Below, piece by piece: positions 31,901 through 56,496 of a stretch of DNA of 64,000 nucleotides (positions are counted from its first letter, which is position 1; the number at the start of each line of letters is the position of its first letter). Below the pieces are notes generated by a model. That model was not told the origin of the DNA. It did not search any database and saw only the letters and a list, made by a program, of their open reading frames with translations. Source of the stretch: Azolla caroliniana (taxonomy: Eukaryota; Plantae; Polypodiophyta); the NCBI GenBank assembly GCA_043228905.1, contig JBHGNT010000145.1, positions 1-64,000 of the forward strand. The letters are read 5' to 3'. The position numbers were made by a program, and so were the translations under genes.

Positions 31901-32000
31901 TCTGAACTCCCTCCTCATGTTTGCTAATTTCGTCATGTCTCTCGACGTGAGTTTCAAAATCTTGATTTTTTAATTACATATTATCGATAGCGTTGTTAGC
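23600..32000. repeat. Tandem duplication of a 24-monomer block (4213-bp period)
   Basis: Private markers recur 4213 bp apart: AAAGATCCGA at 25911/30124, TAAGGG at 24711/28924 and the 59-bp deletion junction TTGTTAGCTAATTTAC at 27661/31874. 24x178-59=4213. Boundaries are approximate. Confidence 0.88.
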
Positions 32001-37200: not shown

Positions 37201-40200
37201 TTAGCTTCGATTCGCATGTTTGAACACAAAAATCCGATATCACACGAGCCAGGTATGAACATTTTAATTTACTCAAGGCCTCCTTTGAACTCCCTCCTCA
37301 TGTTTGCTAATTTCGTCGTGTCTCTCGAACTGAGTTTCAAAATCTTGATTTTTTAATTCCATATTATCGATAGCGTTGTTAGCTTCGATTCGCATGTTTG
37401 AACACAAAAATCCGATATCACACTCGCTAGGTATGAACTATTTAATTTACTCCAGGCCTCCTTTGAACTCCCTCCTCATGTTTGCTAATTTCGTCATGTC
37501 TCTCGACCTGAGTTTCAAAATCTTGATTTTTTAATTCCATATCATAGCTAGCGTTGTTAGCTTCGATTCGCATGTTTCAACACAAAAATCCGATATCACA
37601 CGAGCCAGGTATGAACTCTTTAATTTACTCAAGGCCTCCTTTGAACTCCCTCCTCATGTTTGCTAATTTCGTCATTTCTCTCGACCTGAGTTTCAAAATC
37701 TTGATTTTTTAACTCCATATCATAGCTAGCGTTGTTAGCTTCGATTCGCATGTTTGAACACAAAAATCCGATATCACACTCGCCAGGTATGAACATTTTA
37801 ATTTACTGAAGGCCTCCTCTGAACTCCCTCCTCATGGTTGCTAATTTCGTCGTGTCTCTCGACCTGAGTTTCATAATCTTGATTTTTTAATTCCATTTCA
37901 TAGCTAGCGTTGTTATCTTCGATTCGCATGTTTGAACACAAAAATCCGATATCACACGAGCCAGGTATGAACATTTTAATTTACTCAAGGCCTCCTCTGA
38001 ACTCCCTCCTCATGTTTGCTAATTTCGTCATGTCTCTCGACCTGAGTTTCAAAATCTTGATTTTTTAATTCCATATTATCGATAGCGTTGTTAGCTTCGA
38101 TTTGCATGTTTGAACACAAAAATCCGATATCACACGAGCCAGGTATGAACTATTTAATTTACTCAAGGCCTCCTTTGAACTCCCTCCTCATGTTTGCTAA
38201 TTTTGTCATGTCTCTCGACCTGAGTTTCGAAATCTTGATTTTTTAATTCCATATCATAGCTAGCGTTGTTAGCTTCGATTCGCATGTTTGAACACAAAAA
38301 TCCGATATCACACGAGCCAGCTATGAACATTTTAATTTACTTAAGGCCTCCTTTGAAGTCACTCCTCATGTTTGCTAATTTCGTCATGTCTCTCGACCTG
38401 AGTTTCAAAATCTTGATTTTTTAATTCCATATCATACCTAACGTTGTTAGCTTCGATTCGCATGTTTGTACACAAAAATCCGATATCATACTCGCTAGGT
38501 ATGAACATTTTAATTTACTCAAGGGCTCCTCTCAACTCACTCCTCAAATTTGCTAATTTCGTCATTTCTCTCGACCTGAGTTTCAAAATCTTGATTTTTT
38601 AACTCCATATCATAGCTAGCGTTGTTAGCTTCGATTCTCATGTTTGAACACAAAAATCCGATATCACACGAGCCAGACATGAACATTTTAATTTACCTAC
38701 TAGCTCTTCCCAACTCAGTCCTGAAATTTGGTAATTTCGTCATGTCTCTCGACCTGAGTTTCAAAATCTTGATTTTTTAATTCCATATCATAGCTAGCGT
38801 TGCTATCTTCGATTCGCATGTTTGAACACAAAAATCCAATATCACACGACCTAGGTATGAACATTTTAATTTACTCAAGGCCTCCTCTGAACTCCCTCCT
38901 TATGTTTGCTAATTTCGTCATGTCTCTCGACCTGAGTTTCAAAATCTTGATTTTTTAATTCCATATTATCGATAGCGTTGTTAGCTTCGATTCGCATGTT
39001 TGAACACAAAAATCCAATATCACACTCGCTAGGTATGAACATTTTAATTTACTCAAGGGCTCCTCTCAACTCACTCCTCAAATTTGGTAATTTCGTCATT
39101 TCTCTCGACCTGAGTTTCAAAATCTTGATTTTTTAATTCCATTTCATAGCTATCGTTGTTAGCTTCGATTCGCATGTTTGAACACAAAAATCCGATATCA
39201 CACGAGCCAGGTATGAACATTTTAATTTACTCAAGGCCTCCTTTGAACTCCCTCCTCATGTTTGCTAATTTCGTCATGTCTCTCGACCTGAGTTTCAAAA
39301 TCTTGATTTTTTAATTCCATATTATCGATAGCGTTGTAAGCTTCGATTGGCATGTTTGAACACAAAAATCCGATATCACACGAGCCAGGTATGAACTATT
39401 TAATTTACTCAAGGCCTCCTTTGAACTCCCTCCTCATGTTTGCGAATTTCGTCATGTCTCTCGACCTGAGTTTCAAAATCTTGATTTTTTAATTCCATAA
39501 CATAGCTAGCGTTGTTAGCTTCGATTCGCATGTTTGAACACAAAAATCCGATATCACACTCGCTAGGTATGAACATTTTAATTTACTCAAGACCTCCTCT
39601 GAACTCCCTCCTCATGTTTGCTAATTTCGTCCCTGAGTTTCAAAATCTTGATTTTTTAATTCCATATCATACCTAGCGTTGTTAGCTTCGATTCGCATGT
39701 TTGAACACAAAAATCCGATATCACACGAGCCAGGTATGAACATTTTAATTTACTCAAGGCCTCCTTTGAACTCCCTCCTGAAATTTGGTAATTTCGTCAT
39801 GTCTCTCGACCTGAGTTTCAAAATCTTGATTTTTTAATTCCATATTATCGATAGCGTTGTTAGCTTCGATTCGCATGGTTGAACACAAAAATCCGATATC
39901 ACACGAGCCAGGTATGAACTATTTAATTTACTCAAGACCTCCTTTGAACTCCCTCCTCATGTTTGCTAATTTCGTCATGTCTCTCGACCTGAGTTTCAAA
40001 ATCTTGATTTTTTAATTCCATTTCATAGCTAGCGTTGTTAGCTTCGATTCGCATGTTTGAACACAACAATCCGATATCACACGAGCCAGGTATGAACATT
40101 TTAATTTACTCAAGGCCTCCTCTGAACTCCCTCCTCATGGTTGCTAATTTCGTCGTGTCTCTCGACCTGAGTTTCATAATCTTGATTTTTTAATTCCATT

Positions 40201-43200
40201 TCATAGCTAGCGTTGTTAGCTTCGATTCGCATGTTTGAACACAAAAATCCGATATCACACGAGCCAGGTATGAACATTTTAATTTACTCAAGGGCTCCTC
40301 TCAACTCACTCCTCAAATTTGCTAATTTCGTCATTTTTCTCGACCTGAGATTCAAAATCTTGATTTTTTAACTCCATATCATCGCTAGCGTTGTTAGCTT
40401 CGATTCGCATGTTTGAACACAAAAATCCGATATCACACTCGCCAGGTATGAACATTTTAATTTACTCAAGGCCTCCTCTGAACTCCCTCCTCATGTTTGC
40501 TAATTTCGTCGTGTCTCTGGACCTGAGTTTCATAATCTTGATTTTTTAATTCCATTTCATAGCTAGCGTTGTTAGCTTCGATTCGCATGTTTGAACACAA
40601 AAATCCGATATCACACGAGCCAGGTATGAACATTTTAATTTACTCAAGGCCTCCTCTGAACTCCCTCCTCATGTTTGCTAATTTCGTCATGTCTCTCGAC
40701 CTGAGTTTCAAAATCTTGATTTTTTAATTCCATATTATCGATTGCGTTGTTAGCTTCGATTCACATGTTTGAACACAAAAATCCGATATCACACTCGCTA
40801 GGTATGAACATTTTAATTTACTCAAGGGCTTCTCTCAACTCACTCCTCAAATTTGCTAATTTCGTCATATCTCTGGACCTGAGTTTCAAAATCTTGATTT
40901 TTTAAATCCATATCATAGCTAGCGTTGTTAGCTTCGATTCGCATGTTTGAACACAAAAATCCAATATCACACGAGCCAGATATGAACTTTTGAATTTACC
41001 TACTAGCTCTTCCCAACTCACTCCTCAAATTTGGTAATTTCGTCATGTCTCTCGACTTGAGTTTCAAAATCATGATTTTTTAATTCCATATCATAGCTAG
41101 CGTTGTTAGCTTCGATTCGCATGTTTGAACACAAAAATCCGATATCACACGAGACAGATATGAACATTTTAATTTACCTACTAGCTCTTCCCAACTCACT
41201 CCTCAAATTTGGTAATTTCGTCCTGTCTCTCGACCTAGGTTTCAAAATCTTGATTTTTTAACTCCATATCATAGCTAGCGTTTTTAATTTCGATTCACAT
41301 GTTTGAACACAGAAATCCGATATCACACTCGCCAGGTATGAACATTTTAATTTACTCAAGGCCTCCTCTGAACTCCCTCCTCATGTTTGCAAATTTCGTC
41401 ATGTCTCTCTACTTGAGTTTCAAAATCATGATTTTTTAATTCCATATCATAGCTAGCGTTGTTAGGTTCGATTCGCATGTTTGAACACAAAAATCCGATA
41501 TCACACGAGCCAGATATGAACATTTTAATTTACCTACTAGCTCTTCCCAACTCACTCCTGAAATTTGGTAATTTCGTCATGTCTCTCGACCTGAGTTTCA
41601 AAATCTTGATTTTTTATTTCCATATCATAGCTAGCGTTGCTATCTTCGATTCGCATGTTTGAACACAGAAATCCAATATCACACGAGCTAGGTATGAACA
41701 TTTTAATTTACTCAAGGCCTCCTCTGAACTCCCTCCTTATGTTTGCTAATTTCGTCATGTCTCTCGACCTGAGTTTCAAAATCTTGATTTTTTAATTCCA
41801 TATTATCGATAGCGTTGTTAGCTTCGATTCACATGTTTGAACACAAAAATCCGATATCACACTCACTAGGTATGAACATTTTAATTTACTCAAGGGCTCC
41901 TCTCAACTCACTCCTCAAATTTGGTAATTTTGTCATTTCTCTCGACCTAAGTTTCAAAATCTTGATTTTTTAACTCCATATCATAGCTAGCGTTGTTAGC
42001 TTCGATTCGCATGTTTGAACACAAAAATCCGATATCACACTCGCCAGGTATGAACATTTTAATTTACTCAAGGCCTCCTCTGAACTCCCTCCTCATGGTT
42101 GCTAATTTCGTCGTGTCTCTCGACCTGAGTTTCATAATCTTGATTTTTTAATTCCATTTCATAGCTAGCGTTGTTAGCTTCGATTCGCATGTTTGAACAC
42201 AAAAATCCGATATCACACGAGCCAGGTATGAACATTTTAATTTACTCAAGGGCTCCTCTCAACTCACTCCTCAAATTTGCTAATTTCGTCATTTCTCTCG
42301 ACCTGAGTTTCAAAATCTTGATTTTTTAACTCCATATCATAGCTAGCGTTGTTAGCTTCGATTCGCATGTTTGAACACAAAAATCCGATATCACACTCGC
42401 CAGGTATGAACATTTTAATTTACTCAAGGCCTCCTCTGAAATCCCTCCTCATGGTTGCTAATTTCGTCGTGTCTCTGGACCTGAGTTTCATAATCTTGAT
42501 TTTTTAATTCCATTTCATAGCTAGCGTTGTTAGCTTCGATTCGCATGTTTGAACACAAAAATCCGATATCACACGAGCCAGGTATGAACATTTTAATTTA
42601 CTCAAGGCCTCCTCTGAACTCCCTCCTCATGTTTGCTAATTTCGTCATGTCTCTCGACGTGAGTTTCAAAATCTTGATTTTTTAATTCCATATTATCGAT
42701 AGCGTTGTTAGCTTCGATTTGCATGTTTGAACACAAAAATCCGATATCACACGAGCCAGGTATGAACTATTTAATTTACTCAAGGCCTCCTTTGAACTCC
42801 CTCCTCATGTTTGCTAATTTCGTCATGTCTCTCGACCTGAGTTTCAAAATCTTGATTTTTTAATTCCATATCATAGCTAGCGTTGTTAGCTTCGATTCGC
42901 ATGTTTGAACACAAAAATCCGATATCACACTCGCTAGGTATGAACATTTTAATTTACTCAAGACCTCCTCTGAACTCCCTCCTCATGTTTGCTAATTTCG
43001 TCCCTGAGTTTCAAAATCTTGATTTTTTAATTCCATATCATACCTAGCGTTGTTAGCTTCGATTCGCCTGTTTGAACACAAAAATCCGATATCACACGAG
43101 CCAGGTATGAACATTTTAATTTACTCAAGGCCTCCTTTGAACTCCCTCCTGAAATTTGGTAATTTCGTCATGTCTCTCGACCTGAGTTTCAAAATCTTGA

Positions 43201-46200
43201 TTTTTTAATTCCATATTATCGATAGCGTTGTTAGCTTCGATTCGCATGTTTGAACACAAAAATCCGATATCACACGAGCCAGGTATGAACTATTTAATTT
43301 ACTCAAGACCTCCTTTGAACTCCCTCCTCATGTTTGCTAATTTCGTCATGTCTCTCGACCTGAGTTTCAAAATCTTGATTTTTTAATTCCATTTCATAGC
43401 TAGCGTTGTTAGCTTCGATTCGCATGTTTGAACACAAAAATCCGATATCACACGAGCCAGGTATGAACATTTTAATTTACTCAAGGGCTCCTCTCAACTC
43501 ACTCCTCAAATTTGCTAATTTCGTCATTTCTCTCGACCTGAGTTTCAAAATCTTGATTTTTTAACTCCATATCATAGGTAGCGTTGTTAGCTTCGATTCG
43601 CATGTTTGAACACAAAAATCCGATATCACACTCGCCAGGTATGAACATTTTAATTTACTCAAGGCCTCCTCTGAACTCCCTCCTCATGGTTGCTAATTTC
43701 GTCGTGTCTCTGGACCTGAGTTTCATAATCTTGATTTTTTAATTCCATATCATAGCTAGCGTCGCTATCTTCGATTCGCATGTTTGAACACAAAAATCCA
43801 ATATCACACGAGCTAGGTATGAACATTTTAATTTACTCAAGGCCTCCTCTGAACTCCCTCCTTATGTTTGCTAATTTCGTCATGTCTCTCGACCTGAGTT
43901 TCAAAATCTTGATTTTTTAATTCCATATTATCGATAGCGTTGTTAGCTTCGATTCGCATGTTTGAACACAAAAATCCGATATCACACCCGCCAGGTATGA
44001 ACATTTTAATTTACTCAAGGGCTCCTCTCAACTCACTCCTCAAATTTGGTAATTTCGTCGTGTCTCTCGACCTGAGTTTCATAATCTTGATTTTTTAATT
44101 CCATATCATAGCTAGCGTTGTTAGCTTCGATTCGCATGTTTGAACACAAAAATCCGATATCACACGAGCCAGGTATGAACATTTTAATTTACTCAAGGGC
44201 TCCTCTCAACTCACTCCTCAAATTTGCTAATTTCGTCATTTCTCTCGACCTGAGTTTCAAAATCTTGATTTTTTAACTCCATATCATAGCTAGCGTTGTT
44301 AGCTTCGATTCGCATGTTTGAACACAAAAATCCGATATCACACTCGCCAGGTATGAACATTTTAATTTACTCAAGGCCTCCTCTGAACTCCCTCCTCATG
44401 GTTGCTAATTTCGTCGTGTCTCTGGACCTGAGTTTCATAATCTTGATTTTTTAATTCCATTTCATAGCTAGCGTTGTTAGCTTCGATTCGCATGTTTGAA
44501 CACAAAAATCCAATATCACACGAGACAGATATGAACATTTTAATTTACCTACTAGCTCTTCCCAACTCACTCCTCAAATTTGGTAATTTCGTCCTGTCTC
44601 TCGACCTAGGTTTCAAAATCTTGATTTTTTAACTCCATATCATAGCTAGCGTTTTTAATTTCGATTCACATGTTTGACCACAGAAATCCGATATCACACG
44701 AGCCAGGTATGAACATTTTAATTTACTCAAGGCCTCCTCTAAAGTCCCTCCTCATGGTTGCTAATTTCGCCATGTCTCTCGACCTGAGTTTCAAAATCTT
44801 GATTTTTTAAATCCATATCATAGCTAGCGTTGTTAGCTTCGATTCGCATGTTTGAACACAAAAATCCAATATCACACGAGCCAGATATGAACATTTTAAT
44901 TTACCTACTAGCTCTCCCCAACTCAGTCCTGAAATTTGGTAATTTCGTCATGTCTCTCGACCTGAGTTTCAAAATCTTGATTTTTTAATTCCATATCATA
45001 GCTAGCGTTGCTATCTTCGATTCGCATGTTTGAACACAAAAATCCATTATCACACGAGCTAGGTATGAACATTTTAATTTACTCAAGGCCTCCTCTGAAC
45101 TCCCTCCTTATGTTTGCTAATTTCGTCATGTCTCTCGACCTGAGTTTCAAAATCTTGATTTTTTAATTCCATATTATCGATAGCGTTGTTAGCTTCGATT
45201 CGCATGTTTGAACACAAAAATCCAATATCACACTCGCTAGGTATGAACATTTTAATTTACTCAAGGGCTCCTCTCAACTCACTCCTCAAATTTGGTAATT
45301 TCGTCATTTCTCTCGACCTGAGTTTCAAAATCCGATATCACACTCGCCAGGTATGAACATTTTAATTTACTCAAGGCCTCCTTTGAACTCTCTCCTCATG
45401 GTTGCTAATTTCGTCGTGTCTCTCGACCTGAGTTTCAAAATCTTGATTTTTTAATTCCATATTATCGATAGCGTTGTTAGCTTCGATTTGCATGTTTGAA
45501 CACAAAAATCCGATATCACACGAGCCAGGTATGAACATTTTAATTTACTCAAGGCCTCCTCTAAAGTCCCTCCTCATGTTTGCAAATTTCGTCATGTCTC
45601 TCTACTTGAGTTTCAAAATCATGATTTTTTAATTCCATATCATAGCTAGCGTTGTTAGGTTCGATTCGCATGATTGAACACAAAAATCCGATATCACACG
45701 AGCCAGATATGAACATTTTAATTTACCTACTAGCTCTTCCCAACTCACTCCTGAAATTTGGTAATTTCGTCATGTCTCTCGACCTGAGTTTCAAAATCTT
45801 GATTTTTTATTTCCATATCATAGCTAGCGTTGCTATCTTCGATTCGCATGTTTGAACACAAAAATCCAATATCACACGAGCTAGGTATGAACATTTTAAT
45901 TTACTCAAGGCCTCCTCTGAACTCCCTCCTTATGTTTGCTAATTTCGTCATGTCTCTCGACCTGAGTTTCAAAATCTTGATTTTTTAATTCCATATTATC
46001 GATAGCGTTGTTAGCTTCGATTCACATGTTTGAACACAAAAATCCGATATCACACTCGCTAGGTATGAACATTTTAATTTACTCAAGGGCTCCTCTCAAC
46101 TCACTCCTCAAATTTGGTAATTTTGTCATTTCTCTCGACCTAAGTTTCAAAATCTTGATTTTTTAACTCCATATCATAGCTAGCGTTGTTAGCTTCGATT

Positions 46201-49200
46201 CGCATGTTTGAACACAAAAATCCGATATCACACTCGCCAGGTATGAACATTTTAATTTACTCAAGGCCTCCTCTGAACTCCCTCCTCATGGTTGCTAATT
46301 TCGTCGTGTCTCTCGACCTGAGTTTCATAATCTTGATTTTTTAATTCCATTTCATAGCTAGCGTTGTTAGCTTCGATTCGCATGTTTGAACACAAAAATC
46401 CGATATCACACGAGCCAGGTATGAACATTTTAATTTACTCAAGGGCTCCTCTCAACTCACTCCTCAAATTTGCTAATTTCGTCATTTCTCTCGACCTGAG
46501 TTTCAAAATCTTGATTTTTTAACTCCATATCATAGCTAGCGTTGTTAGCTTCGATTCGCATGTTTGAACACAAAAATCCGATATCACACTCGCCAGGTAT
46601 GAACATTTTAATTTACTCAAGGCCTCCTCTGAACTCCCTCCTCATGGTTGCTAATTTCGTCGTGTCTCTAGACCTGAGTTTCATAATCTTGATTTTTTAA
46701 TTCCATTTCATAGCTAGCGTTGTTAGCTTCGATTCGCATGTTTGAACACAAAAATCCGATATCACACGAGCCAGGTATGAACATTTTAATTTACTCAAGG
46801 CCTCCTCTGAACTCCCTCCTCATGTTTGCTAATTTCGTCATGTCTCTCGACGTGAGTTTCAAAATCTTGATTTTTTAATTCCATATTATCGATAGCGTTG
46901 TTAGCTTCGATTTGCATGTTTGAACACAAAAATCCGATATCACACGAGCCAGGTATGAACTATTTAATTTACTCAAGGCCTCCTTTGAACTCCCTCCTCA
47001 TGTTTGCTAATTTCGTCATGTCTCTCGACCTGAGTTTCAAAATCTTGATTTTTTAATTCCATATCATAGCTAGCGTTGTTAGCTTCGATTCGCATGTTTG
47101 AACACAAAAATCCGATATCACACGAGCCAGGTATGAACTATTTAATTTACTCAAGGCCTCCTTTGAACTCCCTCCTCATGTTTGCTAATTTCGTCATGTC
47201 TCTCGACCTGAGTTTCAAAATCTTGATTTTTTAATTCCATATCATAGCTAGCGTTGTTAGCTTCGATTCGCATGTTTGAACACAAAAATCCGATATAACA
47301 CGAGCCAGGTATGAACTATTTAATTTACTCAAGGCCTCCTTTGAACTCCCTCCTCATGTTTGCTAATTTTGTCATGTCTCTCGACCTGAGTTTCAAAATC
47401 TTGATTTTTTAACTCCATATCATAGCTAGCGTTGTTAGCTTCGATTCCCATGTTTGAACACAAAAATCTGATATCACACTCGCTAGGTATGAACATTTTA
47501 ATTTACTCAAGGCCTCCTCTGAACTCCCTCCTCATGTTTGCTAATTTCGTCGTGTCTCTCGACCTGAGTTTCAAAATCTTGATTTTTTAATTCCATATCA
47601 TACCTAGCATTGTTAGCTTCAATTCGCATGTTTGAACACAAAAATCCGATATCACACGAGCCAGGTATGAACATTTTAATTTACTCAAGGCCTCCTTTGA
47701 ACTCCCTCCTCATGTTTGCTAATTTCGTCATGTCTCTCGACCTGAGTTTCAAAATCTTGATTTTTTAATTCCATATTATCGATAGCGTTGTTAGCTTCGA
47801 TTCGCATGTTTGAACACAAAAATCCGATATCACACTCGCTAGGTATGAACATTTTAATTTACTCAAGGGCTCCTCTCAACTCACTCCTCAAATTTGCTAA
47901 TTTCGTCATATCTCTGGACCTGAGTTTCAAAATCTTGATTTTTTAAATCCATATCATAGCTAGCGTTGTTAGCTTCGATTCGCATGTTTGAACACAAAAA
48001 TGCAATATCACACGAGCCAGATATGAACATTTTAATTTACCTACTAGCTCTTCCCAACTCACTCCTCAAATTTGGTAATTTCGTCATGTCTCTCGACTTG
48101 AGTTTCAAAATCATGATTTTTTAATTCCATATCATAGCTAGCGTTGTTAGCTTCGATTCGCATGTTTGAACACAAAAATCCGATATCAGACGAGACAGAT
48201 ATGAACATTTTAATTTACCTACTAGCTCTTCCCAACTCACTCCTCAAATTTGGTAATTTCGTCCTGTCTCTCGACCTAGGTTTCAAAATCTTGATTTTTT
48301 AACTCCATATCATAGCTAGCGTTTTTAATTTCGATTCACATGTTTGAACACAGAAATCCGATATCACACTCGCCAGGTATGAACATTTTAATTTACTCAA
48401 GGCCTCCTCTGAACTCCCTCCTCATGTTTGCAAATTTCGTCATGTCTCTCTACTTGAGTTTCAAAATCATGATTTTTTAATTCCATATTATAGCTAGCGT
48501 TGTTAGCTTCGATTCGCATGTTTGAACACAAAAATCCGATATCACACGAGCCAGATATGAACATTTTAATTTACTCAAGGGCTCCTCTCAACTCACTCCT
48601 CAAATTTGGTAATTTCGTCATTTCTCTCGACCTGAGTTTCAAAATCTTGATTTTTTAACTCCATATCATAGCTAGCGTTGTTAGCTTCGATTCGCATGTT
48701 TGAACACAAAAATCCGATATCACACTCGCCAGGTATGAACATTTTAATTTACTCAAGGCCTCCTCTGAACTCCCTCCGCATGGTTGCTAATTTCGTCGTG
48801 TCTCTCGACCTGAGTTTCATAATCTTGATTTTTTAATTCCATTTCATAGCTAGCGTTGTTAGCTTCGATTCGCATGTTTGAACACAAAAATCCGATATCA
48901 CACGAGCCAGATATGAACATTTTAATTTACCTACTAGCTCTTCCCAACTCAGTCCTGAAATTTGGTAATTTCGTCATGTCTCTCGACCTGAGTTTCAAAA
49001 TCTTGATTTTTTAATTCCATATCATAGCTAGCGTTGCTATCTTCGATTCGCATGTTTGAACACAAAAATCCAATATCACACGAGCTAGGTATGAACATTT
49101 TAATTTACTCAAGGCCTCCTCTGAACTCCCTCCTTATGTTTGCTAATTTCGTCATGTCTCTCGACCTGAGTTTCAAAATCTTGATTTTTTAATTCCATAT

Positions 49201-50699
49201 TATCGATTGCGTTGTTAGCTTCGATTCGCATGTTTGAACACAAAAATCCGATATCACACTCGCTAGGTATGAACATTTTAATTTACTCAAGGGCTCCTCT
49301 CAACTCACTCCTCAAATTTGGTAATTTCGTCATTTCTCTCGATCTGAGTTTCAAAATCTTGATTTTTTAATTCCATATCATAGCTAGCGTTGTTAGCTTC
49401 GATTCGCATGTTGGAACACAAAAATCCGATATCACACTCGCTAGGTATGAACATTTTAATTTACTCAAGGCCTCCTGTGAACTCCCTCCTCATGTTTGCT
49501 AATGTCGTCATGTCTCTCGACTTGAGTTTCAAAATCTTGATTTTTTAATTTCATATCATAGCTAGCGTTGTTAACTTCGATTCGTATGTTTGTACACAAA
49601 AATCCGATATCACACTCGCTAGGTATGAACATTTTAATTTACTCAAGGGCTCCTCTCAACTCACTCCTCAAATTTGCTAATTTCGTCATTTCTCTCGACC
49701 TGAGTTTCAAAATCTTGATTTTTTAACTCCATATCATAGCTAGTGTTGTTAGCTTCGATTCCCATGTTTGAACACAAAAATCCGATATCACACTCGCTAG
49801 GTATGAACATTTTAATTTACTCAAGACCTCCTCTGAACTCCCTCCTCATGTTTGCTAATTTCGTCCCTGAGTTTCAAAATCTTGATTTTTTAATTCCATA
49901 TCATACCTAGCGTTGTTAGCTTCGATTCGCCTGTTTGAACACAAAAATCCGATATCACACGAGCCAGGTATGAACATTTTAATTTACTCAAGGCCTCCTT
50001 TGAACTCCCTCCTCATGTTTGCTAATTTCGTCATGTCTCTCGACCTGAGTTTCAAAATCTTGATTTTTTAATTCCATATTATCGATAGCGTTGTTAGCTT
50101 CGATTCGCATGTTTGAACACAAAAATCCGATATCACACACGCTAGGTATGAACATTTTAATTTACTCAAGGGCTCCTGTGAACTCCCTCCTCATGTTTGC
50201 TAATTTCGTCATGTCTCTCGACCTGAGTTTCAAAATTTTGATTTTTTAACTCCATATCATAGCTAACGTTGTTAGCTTCGATTCGCATGTTTGAATACAA
50301 AAATCCGATATCACACTCGCTAGGTATGAACACTTTAATTTACTCAAGACCTCCTCTCAACTCCCTCCTCATGTTTGCTAATTGCGTTCCTGAGTTTCAA
50401 AATCTTGATTTTTTAATTCCATATCATAGCTAGGGTTGTTAGCTTCGATTCGCATGTTTGAACACAAAAATCCGATATCACACGAGCTAGGTATGAACAT
50501 TTTAATTTACTCAAGGCCTCTTGTGAACTCCCTCCTCATGTTTGCTAATTTGGTCATGTCTCTCGACTTGAGTTTAAAAATCTTGATTTTTTTAATTCCA
50601 TATCATACCTAGCGTTGTTAGCTTCAATTCGCATGTTTGTACACAAAAATCCGATATCACACTCGCTAGGTATGAACATTTTAATTTACTCAAGGGCTC

Positions 50700-50704
50700 C
50701 TCTC
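50700..50704 (+). other. 5' target-site duplication CTCTC
   Basis: The satellite motif CAAGGGCTC-CTCTC-AACTCACTCC is split. CTCTC lies immediately before TGTCA (50705) and again right after TGACA (56492-56496). Confidence 0.95.
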
Positions 50705-50775
50705 TGTCATAACTAGACTCGAACCCATAACCTTTTGTTACACGGGTCGAGACTTTACCATTAGGTTATGAGTTG
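50705..50775 (-). promoter_or_regulatory. tRNA-like Pol III type-2 promoter module (A box + B box), antisense, in 5' LTR U3
   Basis: Minus strand reads CAACTCA-TAACCTAATGG-TAAAGTCTCGACCCGTGTAACAAAAGGTTATG-GGTTCGAGTCT-AGTTATGACA. The A-box-like TAACCTAATGG (50768-50758) and B box GGTTCGAGTC (50725-50716) sit at standard tRNA spacing. Cloverleaf stems are degenerate, so this is not a functional tRNA. Confidence 0.55.
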
Positions 50776-50826
50776 TAATTTGAAGGATATTATTTTCATT
50801 TAGGTTTTATTAGGAAATTGATGTAT

Positions 50827-50876
50827 ATTCCAGATTTCTCTGGAACATTCTAGAAACTTCAGGAGTATTCCTGAAG
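50827..50876. promoter_or_regulatory. Heat-shock element array (10 in-phase alternating nGAAn/nTTCn pentamers)
   Basis: aTTCc aGAtt tcTCt gGAAc aTTCt aGAAa cTTCa gGAgt aTTCc tGAAg: 7 perfect and 3 one-mismatch units, ending 4 bp before the TATA box. Confidence 0.75.
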
Positions 50877-50880
50877 ACAC

Positions 50881-50887
50881 TATAAAA
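50881..50887 (+). promoter_or_regulatory. TATA box of LTR promoter
   Basis: CTATAAAAGG is a canonical TATAWAWR, 33 bp upstream of the predicted start site at 50914. The 3' LTR copy is at 56175. Confidence 0.75.
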
Positions 50888-50913
50888 GGAGGCGCAAGGC
50901 ATTAGTTCGAACC

Positions 50914-50925
50914 AAATCGGTTCAA
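50914..50925 (+). other. Predicted transcript 5' end / self-primer AAATCGGTTCAA
   Basis: Exact reverse complement of 51166-51177, and located at transcription-start distance from the TATA box. Confidence 0.7.
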
Positions 50926-50994
50926 CGCCAGTCTTAAGCCTTCTAACTACTGTTGTATATCTTCCGTCATATAATACATATATCTTTCGCATCA

Positions 50995-50998
<4 letters not shown>

Positions 50999-51034
<36 letters not shown>
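50999..51034 (+). repeat. (TC)18 microsatellite in 5' LTR
   Basis: Read directly from the sequence. Confidence 0.95.
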
Positions 51035-51037
<3 letters not shown>

Positions 51038-51064
51038 CCTTCTCTCAAAGTTCGACACCTCTCA

Positions 51065-51131
51065 TAGTACTAATCCTTCTCTGTCTTAGTACTATTCCCC
51101 AACAATAGTACTAATCCTTCTTTTAGTACTA
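51065..51131. repeat. Four TAGTACTA palindromes in degenerate 18-22 bp repeats at the 3' end of the LTR
   Basis: TAGTACTA at 51065, 51087, 51106 and 51124, mostly followed by A(T)TCC(TTCT). The same arrangement is present in the 3' LTR. Confidence 0.85.
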
Positions 51132-51165
51132 ATTCCTTCTCTGCCTGAATAGAGTTCCTGACAGT

Positions 51166-51177
51166 TTGAACCGATTT
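51166..51177 (+). other. Non-tRNA primer-binding site (self-priming type) TTGAACCGATTT
   Basis: Begins 2 nt (GT) after the LTR-terminal CA, lacks the TGG expected for tRNA-CCA priming, and is a 12/12 complement to 50914-50925. Confidence 0.75.
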
Positions 51178-51252
51178 TCTCCTACTAGTCTCCCTCTTCC
51201 TTCTGTCTCTCTCCTTTCCTACTAGTCTCTTATTTCCCTTTTCCTTCATCCC

Positions 51253-52422
51253 ATGGCCACCGTTAGCGCTGAAGAGTATCAATCCGTTTTCTCGGAATTT
51301 CAATGCTTGAAAGAGAAGTTTCATGCTTTGGAACAAGAAAATCAACGCTTGTTGGGGGATCTTCAGCAAATTTCCTTAGAAAAGCAGCAAACGCAACAAC
51401 AGCATGGGGAACTTGCGTTACGCGTGCAACAACTCGAAGCAACCATCGTAGCAATGCAACAACAAGGGCACGGAGCACAAGGGATTCATAAAGAACCCAA
51501 GATTGGCCTTCCCACGAAGTTCGATGGAACGCGATCGCAGTTTAGAGGGTTTCTTAACCAGGTACGGTTAGTTATTCAAATGCATCCATCCCGATATCCC
51601 ACCGATGCATCACGAGTGGGTTTAGTAGGCACGTTGTTAAATGGCTCAGCATTAGCATGGTTCGCTCCGCTACTAGAAAAGGAATCTCCAGTACTAAATA
51701 ATTTTGAAGAATTCATAAGTGAGTTTAAAGCATGTTTTGGAGATACTGACAGCATAAGGACTGCAATCAACAAAATCCGGCGATTACGCCAAGGTGACCG
51801 TCCAGCCTCCGCATATGCTGCAGATTTCCGCCTACTCGCCGCCGATATCCCCTGGGATGATCAAGCATTGATGGAGCAGTTCCGCTATGGTCTACGCAAC
51901 GATGTCAAGGATTTACTCTTGACTTTCCCTGAAGAGCCAAAATCATTAACAGAAGCAATCAGTCGAGCGGTCAGATGTGACAACCGCCTCTTCGAGCGAC
52001 GTTCGGAACGACAATTTCAGATGCCGAGGGCAAGATCCGAGCCTACCTATGCCTCAATGGTAGCGAAACCTTTTCAAAGGGAGTCACATAATGCGCCTCC
52101 AGTAAGTACTCCAACTCCAATGGAAATTGACACTACACGTCGTCGTGGGCCGCTATCGGAGGAGGAAAAGCAACGACGCCGAACAAACCGATTATGCCTT
52201 TATTGCGGTGGACCAGGGCATATCGCGATAAACTGTCCCCATAGACCAAGAAGGCAGGTAAACCAAGTCATTGTTAGTTCTGACTATACTAAACCCGAGT
52301 CTATGTCAGTAGGAATCTCTGATAATCCTCATAGTCATAATAGTCCTAATAGTACTAATAGTCCGAATCTCGCAAACAAATTTGATGTCCTTAGCCAATT
52401 AGAAGAAGAGTTAAACGACTAA
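51253..52422 (+). CDS. gag: Gag polyprotein (389 aa; coiled-coil N-terminus, retrotransposon capsid domain of the PEG10/RTL1/sushi type, CCHC zinc knuckle)
   Basis: ATG in good context (CCCATGG). Motifs include PTKFDGTRSQFRGFL, LRQG..ASAYAADFR, FRYGLRNDVKD, PTPMEID and CLYCGGPGHIAINC (CX2CX4HX4C, 52195-52236). Confidence 0.95.
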   Translation: MATVSAEEYQSVFSEFQCLKEKFHALEQENQRLLGDLQQISLEKQQTQQQHGELALRVQQLEATIVAMQQQGHGAQGIHKEPKIGLPTKFDGTRSQFRGFLNQVRLVIQMHPSRYPTDASRVGLVGTLLNGSALAWFAPLLEKESPVLNNFEEFISEFKACFGDTDSIRTAINKIRRLRQGDRPASAYAADFRLLAADIPWDDQALMEQFRYGLRNDVKDLLLTFPEEPKSLTEAISRAVRCDNRLFERRSERQFQMPRARSEPTYASMVAKPFQRESHNAPPVSTPTPMEIDTTRRRGPLSEEEKQRRRTNRLCLYCGGPGHIAINCPHRPRRQVNQVIVSSDYTKPESMSVGISDNPHSHNSPNSTNSPNLANKFDVLSQLEEELND

Positions 52423-55400
52423 GTCCAGCCAAAATAGGAGCCGTTTGGTTGGACAGCCCTAGATCTGTGCAGCCCATTAGTGGTTCCATTCCCTCTAAGC
52501 AAGTTAGTGATGTGTTCGTAGTCCAAGTAGCAGTTAGTACTAAAAGAACCCCTCCAGTACATACCTTAGCCCTTCTAGATTCCGGAGCTAATTCTTGCTT
52601 CATGGATAGGAATTTTGCCCGAGCTCATCAGATATCTCTCAGAAAGCTCCCATGTCCAGCCTCAGTAGTAGTCATTGATGGTCGTCCCATTGCTTCTGGT
52701 AATATCATAGAAGAGTCGGAACCCGTTAATATTGTCCTAGATAACTTAACATGTGTAGTATCATTTAATATTATTAGTATTCCAGAACATCCCATAGTTT
52801 TAGGATTACCATGGTTCGAGTTACATGACCCAGACATAGATTGGAGGACAAGGGAAATCCGGTTGCGACAAACCCAAGGATCTACCCAGAAGGTTGCAAC
52901 CATTTCGCTACGTCAGTTGCGTGAGGAAGGGCGCAAGGAGGAAATGTTTCTCTTTGCAATATCAGTACAACCCTCCAGCACCACCAAAGAGGAGTCCACC
53001 GTTCAACTTCCCGAGAAGTATCGTCAGTATGCTGATGTGTTCGATAAAGTACAAGCCAACACACTTCCTCATCATCGGCCGTACGACTGCGCCATCGACT
53101 TACAACCGGGAAAAGAGCCGCCATGGGGGCCGATCTACAATTTGTCACCAACCGAGCTAGAAGTCCTTCGAGCCTATATAGAGGAGAATTTGGAGAACGG
53201 TTTCATTCGGCATTCGAAATCTCCAGCCGGCGCACCCATTTTCTTCGTCAAGAAAAAAGATGGCTCGCTTCGACTCGTTGTAGATTACCGTGGCTTGAAT
53301 AAGGTCACAGTAAGAAATAGGTATGCTCTTCCCCTTATCTCAAGTCTTTTAGAACGGATCAACGGTGCCAGGTTCTTCACGAAGATCGACTTACGAGGAG
53401 CCTATAACCTCGTACGGATCCGACCAGGAGATGAATGGAAGACCGCGTTTCGCACCAGATATGGGCACTTCGAGTATACGGTCATGCCGTTCGGACTCAC
53501 TAATGCGCCGGCAGTCTTCCAGCACATGGCGAATGATATATTTCGAGACCTCTTGGATGATTTTTTGATCATCTATTTGGATGATCTACTGGTTTATTCA
53601 AAGACCCAAGAAGAACATGATTCTCATGTACTATTAGTACTAAAACGACTTCGAGAACATGGTCTGTATGCAAAGTTAGAGAAATGTAGTTTCGGGTGCA
53701 ACCAAGTGGAGTTTCTCGGCTATGTCATCTCCTCAGAAGGCATATCTATGGACCCAGCCAAGGTCAAAACGGTGATAGAATGGCACACTCCGCGTTCGGT
53801 GCGGGATGTGCAATGCTTCCTAGGCTTTGCAAATTTCTATCGGAAGTTCATACAAAATTACTCAAAAATTGTGCTGCCTCTCACACAGCTCACCAGGAAG
53901 GGACAATCATTCATTTGGTCTAAAGAGACGGACATGGCTTTCGAGAGTCTTAAGAAGGCGTTTACATCAGCTCCAATTTTAGGTCATGTGGATCCGGAAA
54001 AACCATTCATTATCGAAGCTGATGCATCGGATTTCGCATTGGGGAGCATTCTGTCACAACAGGGTAACGACGAGAAGCTACATCCTGTGGCTTTCCACTC
54101 CCGTAAGTTTGACGCCGCCGAAATCAACTACGAAATTCATGATAAAGAGCTATTAGCAATAGTTGATTCTTTTATGCAATGGAGGCATTTCCTGGAGGGA
54201 TCTCCTCATCAGGTCACTGTATTCAGTGACCACAAGAACCTTGCCTACTTTCAAGATGCTCGTGTACTGAATCGACGTCAAGCTCGGTGGGCCCATTTCC
54301 TCACACGCTTCGACTTCAAAATTACATATCGTCCGGGGAAGCACCAAGGGAAGGCAGATGCATTATCACGGCGCTCGTATCTAACACCACGTCCCGGTGA
54401 GCCAGCTTTCGATAACCAGAAGCAAGTAATCTTGGGTCCAGCACGACTGCAAGCAGCACAGATCTTTGACATGCCCGTGGATTCCGACATTACCAATACT
54501 ATACGTGAGGACTTGAAGACTGACGCTTTCGCCCAAGCTATACTAGCACAAATTGACCCCTCTCGAGCGTCATGTTCACAATCACAATCACCAGGTACGG
54601 ATTATCGGCAATTCAAATACTGTGATGGATTACTCTTCTTTAAAGAACTTTTGTATGTTCCTAATGGTTCTTGCCGCCTTCAAGTAGTACAAAACTGCCA
54701 TGACACATATACAGCAGGACATTTTGGTAGTACTAAAACATTAGATTTAGTACAACGATCATTCTGGTGGCCCCGTATGCGACAATTTGTCGAAGATTTT
54801 GTTCGGACTTGCGATACATGCTGCAGAGCGAAAATGCCAAGACATCATCCATATGGTTTATTAGAACCATTACCAATTCCAAGCAAGCCATGGCAATCCA
54901 TTGCTCTTGACTTCATTACAGATCTTCCAGTCTCTAAGGGATTCAGTGCGATTCTCACAGTGGTGGATCGATATACGAAGATGGCTCATTTCTTACCATG
55001 TACTAAAGAAATATCTAGTGAAGACACCGCCGAAATTGTCATGCGGGAAGTATGTCGGCATCATGGACTCCCTGATAATATCATCAGCGATCGTGGACCC
55101 CAGTTTGTGTCAAAATTCTGGAAGCACCTTTTTAAAATGCTGAAGGTCACTTGTAACCTCTCCTCCGGCTACCACCCACAAACCGACGGTCAAGCCGAAC
55201 GAACAAATCAAACACTGGAGCAGTATCTGCGGTGCTTTCTCAACTATCATCAGAATGACTGGGCAGATATTCTTCCGTTCGCCGAATTTGCCTATAATAA
55301 CGCTATCCACGCATCGACTAAAGTCACGCCATTCTACGCTTATACGGGATATCATCCCCGGTGGTGTGTCCTTGAAACCCCAGAAGTGTCCACAAATCCT

Positions 55401-56006
55401 TGCGCGGAGGATCGTTTGGAGCGGTTACGCAAGATACAAGCGGATTTATCTACTCAACTCCAGCAAGCTCAACAATCACACAAGGACTACGCAGATCGTC
55501 ATCGACTTCCATCCAGTTTTAACATTGGAGATCGGGTGTGGCTGCTACGACGACACATCAAGACTACTCGCCCATGTGAGAAGTTGGATTATCGACGATT
55601 AGGTCCTTTCCGTATTATCGGGAAGATTAATGATGTCGCTTTTCGTCTCGAGCTACCTCCGCAACTTCGGATACACCCGGTGTTTCATAGTTCTCTCCTC
55701 GAACCCTATCACGAGAGCACTATCCCAGGACGTACTATACAACCTCCACCTCCTATCGAGCTCGAAGATGGACCTGAGTATGAGGTCGCTGCCATCCTCG
55801 ATTCCAAGATTGTTCGCAACAAGCTCTACTATCTAGTCGATTGGCTAGGATATAGTCCCAGCGAGCGTACTTGGGAACCGATCGAGAATGTGACCAATGC
55901 TCGTGCTCTTCTAGAAGACTTCCATCGACGATATCCCGAGAAACCGGGTCCTCAATCCAAAACGACTCGTGAAACTCGTCGTTTTAAAGGGGGGATAGTG
56001 TCATAA
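52395..56006 (+). CDS. pol: Pol polyprotein: aspartic protease, reverse transcriptase, RNase H, integrase, chromodomain; expressed as Gag-Pol by -1 frameshift
   Basis: The ORF track gives 52449-56006 from a TTG, but the frame is open from 52395 and overlaps the gag end in the -1 frame. Motifs: ALLDSGA (D at 52578), MPFGLTNAPAVFQ, YLDD (53574-53585), EADASDFALG, NYEIHDKELLAIV, H..GHFG..C..C, DFITDLP, SDRGPQF, QTDGQAERTNQ, GPF and EYEV..ILD..YLVDWLGY..TWEP. Confidence 0.96.
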   Translation, partial: PIRRRVKRLSPAKIGAVWLDSPRSVQPISGSIPSKQVSDVFVVQVAVSTKRTPPVHTLALLDSGANSCFMDRNFARAHQISLRKLPCPASVVVIDGRPIASGNIIEESEPVNIVLDNLTCVVSFNIISIPEHPIVLGLPWFELHDPDIDWRTREIRLRQTQGSTQKVATISLRQLREEGRKEEMFLFAISVQPSSTTKEESTVQLPEKYRQYADVFDKVQANTLPHHRPYDCAIDLQPGKEPPWGPIYNLSPTELEVLRAYIEENLENGFIRHSKSPAGAPIFFVKKKDGSLRLVVDYRGLNKVTVRNRYALPLISSLLERINGARFFTKIDLRGAYNLVRIRPGDEWKTAFRTRYGHFEYTVMPFGLTNAPAVFQHMANDIFRDLLDDFLIIYLDDLLVYSKTQEEHDSHVLLVLKRLREHGLYAKLEKCSFGCNQVEFLGYVISSEGISMDPAKVKTVIEWHTPRSVRDVQCFLGFANFYRKFIQNYSKIVLPLTQLTRKGQSFIWSKETDMAFESLKKAFTSAPILGHVDPEKPFIIEADASDFALGSILSQQGNDEKLHPVAFHSRKFDAAEINYEIHDKELLAIVDSFMQWRHFLEGSPHQVTVFSDHKNLAYFQDARVLNRRQARWAHFLTRFDFKITYRPGKHQGKADALSRRSYLTPRPGEPAFDNQKQVILGPARLQAAQIFDMPVDSDITNTIREDLKTDAFAQAILAQIDPSRASCSQSQSPGTDYRQFKYCDGLLFFKELLYVPNGSCRLQVVQNCHDTYTAGHFGSTKTLDLVQRSFWWPRMRQFVEDFVRTCDTCCRAKMPRHHPYGLLEPLPIPSKPWQSIALDFITDLPVSKGFSAILTVVDRYTKMAHFLPCTKEISSEDTAEIVMREVCRHHGLPDNIISDRGPQFVSKFWKHLFKMLKVTCNLSSGYHPQTDGQAERTNQTLEQYLRCFLNYHQNDWADILPFAEFAYNNAIHASTKVTPFYAYTGYHPRWCVLETPEVSTNPCAEDRLERLRKIQADLSTQLQQAQQSHKDYADRHRLPSSFNIGDRVWLLRRHIKTTRPCEKLDYRRLGPFRIIGKINDVAFRLELPPQLRIHPVFHSSLLEPYHESTIPGRTIQPPPPIELEDGPEYEVAAILDSKIVRNKLYYLVDWLGYSPSERTWEPIENVTNARALLEDFHRRYPEKPGPQSKTTRETRRFKGGIVS
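52410..52461 (+). promoter_or_regulatory. -1 programmed ribosomal frameshift signal: G_UUA_AAC heptamer plus stem-loop/pseudoknot
   Basis: G TTA AAC at 52410-52416 in gag phase, then a 6-nt spacer. An 11-bp stem forms between GTCCAGCCAAA (52423-52433) and TTTGGTTGGAC (52444-52454; one G-U). Loop TAGG(A)GC can pair with GCCCTA (52456-52461). Confidence 0.8.
55776..55925 (+). other. Integrase C-terminal chromodomain (group I-like, aromatic cage residues retained)
   Basis: EYEVAAILDSKIVRNKLYYLVDWLGYSPSERTWEPIENVTNARALLEDFH matches the HP1-type chromodomain pattern (Y..; W.GY; TWEP). Confidence 0.9.
55986..55998 (+). other. Polypurine tract AAAGGGGGGATAG
   Basis: Purine run immediately 5' of the 3' LTR start TG (55999). 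Confidence 0.9.
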
Positions 56007-56288
56007 CTAGACTCGAACCCATAACCTTTTCTTACACGGGTCGAGACTTTACCATTAGGTTATGAGTTGTAATTTGAAGGATATTATTTTCATTTAGGTT
56101 TTATTAGGAAATTGATGTATATTCCAGATTTCTCTGGAACATTCTAGAAACTTCAGGAGTATTCCTGAAGACACTATAAAAGGAGGCGCAAGGCATTAGT
56201 TCGAACCAAATCGGTTCAACGCCAGTCTTAAGCCTTCTAACTACTGTTGTATATCTTCCGTCATATAATACATATATCTTTCGCATCA

Positions 56289-56358
<70 letters not shown>

Positions 56359-56491
56359 ACTCATTCCTTCTCTCAAAGTTCGACACCTCTCATAGTACTA
56401 ATCCTTCTCTGTCTTAGTACTATTCCCCAACAATAGTACTAATCCTTCTTTTAGTACTAATTCCTTCTCTGCCTGAATAGAGTTCCTGACA
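55999..56491 (+). repeat. 3' LTR (493 bp)
   Basis: TGTCATAACTAG...GTTCCTGACA. Carries second copies of the A/B-box module (55999-56069), HSE (56121-56170) and TATA (56175). Confidence 0.97.
56293..56362 (+). repeat. (TC)31(ACTC)2 microsatellite in 3' LTR
   Basis: Read directly; 34 bp longer than the 5' LTR copy, which accounts for the whole LTR length difference. Confidence 0.93.
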
Positions 56492-56496
56492 CTCTC
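56492..56496 (+). other. 3' target-site duplication CTCTC
   Basis: Follows TGACA and continues in satellite phase as AACTCACTCCTCAAATTTG. Confidence 0.95.

Follow-up and report, generated by a model that had tools for sequence, protein, structure and literature searches.

The window analysed here, 64,000 nucleotides of an Azolla caroliniana contig, consists of a 178-bp satellite array with a single 5787-bp LTR-retrotransposon insertion. The body of the element and its surroundings are laid out as follows:

325..50703, + strand: 178-bp satellite array, left of the element (it resumes on the right, to 63992)
50700..50704, + strand: left target-site duplication, 5 bp (right copy at 56492-56496)
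50705..51163, + strand: 5' LTR, 459 bp, TG...CA
51253..52422, + strand: gag ORF with retrotransposon gag, Ty3 capsid and CCHC matches (Pfam)
52395..56006, + strand: open pol frame with protease, RT, RNase H, integrase, SH3 and chromodomain (Pfam), overlapping gag in the -1 frame
55985..55998, + strand: polypurine tract (PPT)
55999..56491, + strand: 3' LTR, 493 bp, with a longer TC microsatellite and containing the pol stop codon (56004-56006)

Outside the TC microsatellite the two LTRs differ at a single base, so this copy is young. The Pfam matches follow the Ty3/gypsy domain order with a C-terminal chromodomain, in whose translation we found Y, W and Y at what we take to be the aromatic-cage positions. 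Named protein matches were fungal, fish and algal Ty3/gypsy elements at 40-50%, as expected for the Tcn1/Tf1-Sushi group. The element is an intact autonomous self-priming chromovirus of Tcn1/Tf1 type, a class assigned by its features, the Pol tree described below holding no named Tcn1 reference. Its pol frame continues across the PPT and ends with its stop codon at LTR nt 6-8 (55985-56006), as it does in many relatives, so the LTR start is also under coding constraint. In the surrounding array, satellite deletion variants with periods of 102-119 bp recur at 27573-45442, three of them near-identical, which suggests higher-order duplication.

The LTR carries a predicted Pol II promoter and, at its outer edge on the opposite strand, a tRNA-derived module:

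50705..50775, - strand: tRNA-derived module, 5' LTR nt 1-71, tRNA positions 72 to 1 (held-out profile, E 3.1e-10)
50758..50768, - strand: A box (T8 to G19)
50730..50733, - strand: variable-loop motif, tRNA positions 44-47 (88-100% conserved, 34 families)
50716..50725, - strand: B box (G52 to C61)
50645..50649, - strand: first T5 downstream of the 5' LTR module, in the satellite
50843..50875, + strand: heat-shock-element (HSE)-like array, seven alternating GAA/TTC units, one imperfect
50881..50887, + strand: TATA box of the predicted Pol II promoter
50914..50925, + strand: predicted 5' end of the genomic RNA, the self-primer, about 33 nt below the TATA box
51166..51177, + strand: self-priming site, complementary to 50914-50925 (no tRNA PBS)
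55999..56069, - strand: second module copy, 3' LTR (held-out profile, E 6.1e-10)
55959..55962, - strand: first T4 downstream of the 3' LTR module, at the pol end

Read from its outer end, the U3 thus comprises the att site, the antisense module (nt 1-71), about 65 nt of AT-rich DNA, the GAA/TTC array, the TATA box and the self-primer. The 50 nt upstream of the module, on the LTR-interior side, are 75-88% A+T. In 11 loci the LTR is followed by an exact 11-nt match to the self-primer, which occurs in several covarying versions, and a TGG-type PBS was found at 0 of 20 readable LTR ends (of 37 upstream regions). These covarying primer/target pairs in the clade support priming of the Tf1 type. The GAA/TTC array resembles the HSE consensus, and its place directly before the TATA box suggests that transposition may be heat-inducible. 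Among module-bearing LTRs whose sequence could be followed as far as the R motif, 18 of 23 have HSE triplets; of 22 LTRs that lack a full module, which represent few independent lineages, 2 have them. The array is absent from one module-bearing subclade (L017, L020, L031, L033). Since the triplets are missing in 5 of the 23, the link between module and HSE promoter is not obligatory. Among elements other than the present one, ONSEN is driven by heat-shock factor binding (PMC12786077), and the moss gypsy families RLG2 and RLG1 are described as heat-induced and repressed, respectively (PMC7466625).

On the minus strand, the A-box-like (50768-50758) and B-box-like (50725-50716) motifs reported in the initial annotation were present in both LTRs. 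In tRNA numbering, position 1 falls at 50775 and position 72 at 50705, the first LTR base, and G19 and G53 are 34 nt apart, which bears out the intronless-tRNA spacing already claimed. The longest T-run within positions 8-61 is 2, in agreement with the earlier statement that no internal T4 exists. The module holds 13 of 14 canonical tRNA positions, a score reached by 0 of 60 dinucleotide shuffles. With a strict A/B pattern, the two LTR copies were the sole matches in the 64 kb on both strands, where 0.005 matches are expected per shuffled 5.8-kb element. Having both boxes at tRNA spacing, the module has the sequence make-up of a type-2 Pol III promoter. The two copies differ by one substitution in the spacer (50737 G vs 56031 C, tRNA position 40). 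Within-genome variants (16 rows, 11 places, 50743-50770) numbered none in the B box and several in the A-box region, a pattern that edge effects render uninformative on constraint. Contigs covering the module, which are strandless and possibly DNA, were two in one run typed 'RNA?' and none in another. Each satellite monomer (e.g. 50442-50451) has a B-box-like stretch that lacks G53, at which the family profile gave no match.

A functional tRNA gene is excluded by the failed cloverleaf pairing and by the lack of Rfam or ARAGORN calls. The RF00005 covariance search gave no match to the window module at E up to 10, Rfam over 50400-51300 returned two chance matches and nothing else, and ARAGORN called no tRNA in the window. 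In the window copy, 2 of 7 acceptor, 3 of 4 D-stem, 1 of 5 anticodon and 4 of 5 T-stem pairs can form. Single-strand folds gave z values of -2.1 to -2.8 on both strands, due to a spacer/B-box hairpin and not to a cloverleaf. In the subclade of the window, the spacer carries an inverted copy of the B-box region (50716-50747), which gives a hairpin near the PPT on either strand. This hairpin is not conserved in far families.

The distribution of the module was followed in relatives collected with an alignment of nine Pol C-termini, from which we took the best 78 of at least 437 confirmed stretches, plus one genome-contig locus. Eight loci were left out (five with no LTR start found, three with less than 84 nt of LTR), leaving 71 loci and the window. 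The Pol tree of these 72 rows, a quick search and unrooted, so that gain and loss of the module cannot be told apart, comprised a group of 39 rows including the window, a 14-row clade, a pair and a 17-row clade. For the search we used a sequence-only profile of 25 modules, from which the window's own 14-row clade and all tRNAs had been left out. In this sample from the best 78 stretches plus one, the module was present at the LTR start in 43 of 71 related LTRs. By group, the profile (E up to 0.07) matched the LTR start in 34/39, 10/14 (L064 with the B half only), 0/2 and 0/17 rows; 25 of the 44 profile-positive rows, window included, are training rows. All 44 carry the module on the minus strand, antisense to the element. 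In the held-out clade of the window, the profile found the module in 11 of 14 rows, including the window copies at E 3e-10 and 6e-10.

The same profile also detected true tRNA genes, namely the Asn (E 0.001) and Thr (E 0.044) genes of L027, and since it contains no tRNA, this supports a tRNA origin of the module. These genes, Asn-GTT and Thr-AGT, lie convergently at L027:552-906, just upstream of a truncated pol fragment. They were the only tRNAs called by ARAGORN on 60 of the 79 loci. With RF00005, searched on 20 loci, L051 scored 27.8 bits, just below the cut-off of 29. The covariance-model signal proposed earlier as a check was therefore lacking in the window copy and appeared at the level of the family, in L051 and in the held-out profile matches. 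Over positions 8-64 the modules match the Asn tRNA at 24-35 and the Thr tRNA at 22-34 positions, a comparison with two true tRNAs only, which match each other at 34, so that no donor is named. In one family, a near-complete tRNA outline with an 11-bp inverted repeat was seen at L051:5023-5094, L055:790-861 and L032:135-205, with its pairing broken in sister copies; this is possibly a younger capture or a local inversion.

Module carriers are autonomous elements: an open pol of at least 1000 codons was found in 19 of the 43 module-bearing loci, and most of the others are short or damaged contigs. Six profile-negative LTRs resemble damaged copies (L021, L030, L041, L057, L073, L074), and complete LTRs with no module exist (L036, L037, L039, and a 17-row clade). 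In the module-free clade (L052, L056, L059, L063, L065-L070, L075, L076, L078), the U3 opens with tandem repeats of about 37 bp, which re-use the LTR terminal motif. The module is still found at 57-60% Pol identity, a depth at which blastn gave no LTR match in 11 of 11 far families. In a sister subfamily, the contig ends beside the LTR start showed mixed, non-satellite flanks (agreement 0.63-0.77), so that the satellite-tied role envisaged in the initial annotation is not supported as a general feature. The viral contigs searched contained no match. The sole genome-contig locus, L079, has no LTR; it is a contig of an archaeal metagenome-assembled genome that encodes a chromovirus integrase end, probably eukaryotic contamination.

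For the conservation analysis, 34 modules, about one per near-identical set, were numbered as tRNAs, the rows having been picked for carrying a module. Positions T8, A14, T16, G18, G19, T20, A44, G45, G46, T47, G52-C56, A58, T60 and C61 were 88-100% conserved; R57 was kept in 34/34 and C56 in 32/34 modules, and position 48 was a pyrimidine in 34/34. In yeast, mutation of C56 and R57 is described to lower TFIIIC binding 370-fold and 56-fold, respectively (PMC11811891). We compared divergence in 17 disjoint pairs from the 34 families, a few of which are not true sisters. Canonical box positions differed at 27 of 221 sites (about 12%) and the spacer at 122 of 321 (38%), so that the boxes-versus-spacer comparison set beforehand came out strongly in favour of the boxes. 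Positions unused in row selection (16, 20, 21, 44-47, 52, 60) showed 18/153 differences and the acceptor or flank 109/272. By parsimony on the Pol tree, box positions changed 0-7 times and spacer positions 5-13 times each, with zero changes at positions 47, 53 and 55. An unanchored alignment of 40 LTR starts chosen with no regard to score aligned the module almost gap-free, with the same conserved blocks. The distance between G19 and G53 was 33, 34 and 35 nt in 2, 12 and 20 of the 34 rows, where the scoring admitted 30-40 nt and the tRNA numbering only 33-35. In contrast to this spacing, the distance from the module to the LTR end ranged from 0 to 54 nt among the 34 families and was flush in 2; the flush end noted earlier for the window, where position 72 is 50705, is correct there and is a family quirk.

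These data bear directly on whether the module might be a match by chance, or else the neutral remains of a tRNA or SINE that inserted long ago. Rfam and ARAGORN did miss the window copy, and weak tRNA- or SINE-like relics occur away from LTR starts in L008 (4955-4997), L069 (5071-5130) and L076 (12501-12559), as such a history would produce. Against it, divergence at the boxes was threefold lower, also at the positions unused for selection, the module was conserved where the remaining LTR is unalignable and was detected at a held-out E of 3e-10, and the unanchored alignment, the pairwise divergence and the Pol-tree parsimony all contradict it, which makes a relic highly improbable. Judged by its sequence, the module is a real feature under selection, with selectively conserved boxes, and the earlier proposal of a tRNA-derived type-2 Pol III promoter sequence is supported by the boxes, the spacing and the selective conservation. 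Its orientation and spacing are fixed, the cloverleaf is lost, and it lies at the outer U3 edge, upstream of the TATA box and facing away from it.

The loss of the fold was quantified over the 34 modules. Acceptor pairs formed in 91/238 cases against 83.1 in shuffled columns (P 0.085), anticodon pairs in 66/170 against 65.2, and T-stem pairs in 120/170 against 119.6, the three inner ones being fixed by column make-up. The D stem was slightly above expectation (81/136 against 73.6, P 0.028). The true tRNAs of L027 formed 21 of 21 pairs each. RNAalifold on the modules found no consensus structure. The pair 11-24 was kept in 32/34 modules against 25.3 in shuffles, in the states C-G, T-G, T-A and A-T and never as C-A; it ranks 2nd of 2062 column pairs, although unrelated pairs reach a similar z, and a tree-aware sign test gave 4.2 to 0 of 6 pairs (p about 0.125). 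An oligo-T terminator common to the families at a set distance was not found from position 62 to 400 nt past position 72: the first T4 lay within about 60 nt of position 72 in 19 of the 34 families and at 109-329 nt in 3, and 12 had none within 400 nt. Between position 62 and the LTR start, a T4 was seen in 10/34 families against 5.9 in shuffles (P 0.04, relatedness ignored), and 3 of the 34 modules hold an internal T4.

An antisense Pol III RNA with a D-loop/T-loop elbow might be the selected product, tuning silencing or reverse transcription; it would run from the 5' LTR into the flank and from the 3' LTR over the PPT and the pol end. The pair 11-24 is relevant here, as it covaries via G-U intermediates that are workable only on the tRNA-sense strand. 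The residues 8, 14, 15, 18, 19, 46, 48 and 54-58, which we take to form the tRNA tertiary core, are kept, and the T-stem pairs 51-63, 52-62 and 53-61 are maintained (28, 30 and 34 of 34). The fixed spacing and the scarcity of internal T4 runs would also suit a transcript. Both boxes are retained and not the B box alone, where extra-TFIIIC sites of yeast and of humans are described as mostly box B only (PMC6950938), and the foamy virus U3 has working Pol III A/B cassettes (PMC3993851). Such an RNA would nevertheless have no conserved 3' end, given the scatter of T4 runs described above, and its transcribed tail would vary with family and insertion site. Its acceptor and anticodon stems pair no better than chance, the remaining three pairs of the D stem are near expected, and the sole perfect acceptor stem, that of L051, is broken and uncompensated in its sister L055. 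We consider a selected RNA product, the strongest of the alternatives, rather unlikely. The downstream T-runs at 50649-50645 and 55962-55959 had been located correctly, but the RNAs of 110-130 nt deduced from them do not hold as a general feature, the terminator positions being scattered and the flush module a family quirk.

The place of the module, 0-54 nt from the integrase attachment end, would suit a role of TFIIIC in integration or nuclear position and not in transcription: it might tether the cDNA ends or the new copy to clusters of Pol III or of centromeres, or offer tRNA-seeking elements a landing pad in the LTR. S. pombe tRNA genes cluster at centromeres, a behaviour that depends on TFIIIC (PMC6538654). 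However, 12 LTRs lacking a downstream R motif showed no insertion of LTR type placed at a constant distance upstream of the module, a weak comparison in collapsed-repeat contigs, and tethering does not need the kept A box or the AT-rich upstream DNA; we judge this role improbable. Still less likely is that host tRNAs anneal to the sense copy which the genomic RNA carries in its 3' U3, in the manner of the 3' half of the Ty3 bipartite PBS, and that this aids packaging or strand transfer. HIV-1 U3-R reportedly has a tRNA-Lys3-like antisense stretch, and the module has the same place and polarity as those segments of the Ty3 U3 to which tRNAiMet binds with its T and D arms (PMC5371799). But these self-primed elements have no tRNA primer to bridge, wobble-tolerated changes were not enriched (14/442 vs 6/170), the tolerated C-A was seen 0 times and the penalised T-G 7 times at 11-24, and isotype-specific stem positions vary freely.

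The module is best explained as a DNA site for TFIIIC, and probably TFIIIB, that would act as a barrier, or as an anchor of open chromatin, set between heterochromatin on the flank and the Pol II promoter of the element itself, and we hold this prediction with moderate confidence. The insulation from heterochromatin considered in the initial annotation fits this layout. A DNA site rather than a tRNA product is indicated by the stems at chance, the lack of a common structure and the lack of a fixed terminator, and since complete LTRs with no module exist, the module is dispensable, as would befit an accessory regulator. TauB recognises the B box and surrounds upstream DNA, while tauA and the A box recruit TFIIIB, and TFIIIC is described to act as an insulator at Pol III-free sites (PMC11811891). 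Pol III-free TFIIIC sites of C. elegans with both boxes lie on tRNA-pseudogene repeats near H3K9me3 borders (PMC6950938). In our elements, tauB would bind the B box and the DNA just upstream, positions 44-47 being part of the segment that the human structure resolves. Through the retained A box, TFIIIB would come to lie on the 50 AT-rich nt toward the LTR interior, with about 70 nt to the HSE-like array. At the 5' LTR, the TFIIIC/TFIIIB complex would then stand between flank and promoter: the chromodomain integrase would put the copy into silent chromatin, and the complex would keep its promoter accessible. Pol III traffic, if any, would head away from the Pol II start, and transcripts made by Pol III would be mere by-products, differing in length. 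Shielding is plausible as the selected benefit for an element whose chromodomain is expected to target heterochromatin.

Several observations count against this DNA-site reading. The retention of pair 11-24 hints at a folded RNA, and the LTR-internal T4 excess and the HSE gaps also weigh against it. The module spacing is narrow, 33-35 nt in 34/34, where TFIIIC tolerates A-B distances of 30-67 bp (PMC11811891). Pol II promoters can also be repressed by tRNA genes close by, and to our knowledge TFIIIC barrier activity is not established in plants.

Small-RNA-gene promoters in LTRs are known from other elements. In Helenus (TRIMp3; Kojima 2024, PMC10886601), a non-autonomous, tRNA-primed element of 311-1263 bp, both LTRs hold tRNA-derived sequence with A and B boxes kept and tRNA function mostly lost, as in our module, and its plant and fungal families share the 5-bp TSD with the present element. 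In the plant family of Helenus, the sense tRNA is proposed to transcribe the element (PMC10886601). Unlike Helenus, the present element is 5.8 kb long, with open gag and pol, a TATA promoter and a module pointing away. The plant family Helenus-1_SMo has its tRNA in sense and a TGG-type PBS (PMC10886601), whereas our module is antisense and the element autonomous and self-primed, so that the link to tRNA-LTR TRIMs suggested earlier was not upheld; membership in the Helenus TRIMs fails on autonomy, orientation and priming. According to the same source, 'not a few' Repbase LTRs hold tRNA-like pieces, of which only TRIMs under 1000 bp were kept (PMC10886601), and unnamed Repbase entries with such a module may exist. 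The Cassandra and Ajax TRIMs likewise captured a Pol III promoter, but theirs is of the 5S type (type 1), in non-autonomous elements, and drives the element's own RNA (PMC10886601, PMC12786077).

Tcn1/Tf1-Sushi chromoviruses resemble the present element in their two ORFs, aromatic-cage chromodomain and self-priming with no tRNA PBS, and in size, about 5.7 kb with LTRs near 450 bp (PMC6317226, PMC2864245). The available text of their descriptions mentions no tRNA-like LTR module (Neumann 2019, PMC6317226; Novikova 2010, PMC2864245); for SM-Tcn1, TATA and CAAT boxes are listed (Novikova 2010, PMC2864245). The tDNA barriers of S. pombe centromeres and CeRep3 of C. elegans are alike in having A/B boxes with no working tRNA beside heterochromatin (PMC6538654, PMC6950938). 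Those barriers and extra-TFIIIC sites belong to host loci or to dispersed repeats, whereas the present candidate site is a fixed part of an autonomous element's promoter. Simian foamy virus, likewise an autonomous LTR element, also has A/B-box promoters in its U3, but makes defined hairpin RNAs with terminators (PMC3993851), and our module has no conserved hairpin or terminator. Ty3, with its bipartite PBS, shares a tRNA-complementary U3 sequence, but binds its own primer tRNA (PMC5371799), which the present elements do not have. A full-text literature search, with most subscription journals outside its coverage, found no antisense tRNA-type promoter in chromovirus LTRs.

The capture of small-RNA genes now extends from non-autonomous TRIMs, in which the promoter makes the element RNA, to autonomous elements in which it cannot. 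More tentatively, heterochromatin-seeking chromoviruses might carry a portable barrier of the tDNA type, derived from one tRNA capture that predates the 57-60% Pol split and that fungal chromoviruses may share. To the question of how heterochromatin-targeting elements remain expressible at such places, an outer antisense Pol III promoter offers a concrete and mutable answer: a single base of the B box can be changed while the Pol II promoter and the coding region stay intact. If the predicted role is true, many mobile TFIIIC sites, unseen by tRNA finders, would be scattered in such genomes. Each new copy with such a portable barrier would plant a TFIIIC/TFIIIB site in satellite or other silent chromatin, shielding the promoter of the element and reshaping the centromeric domains of the host.
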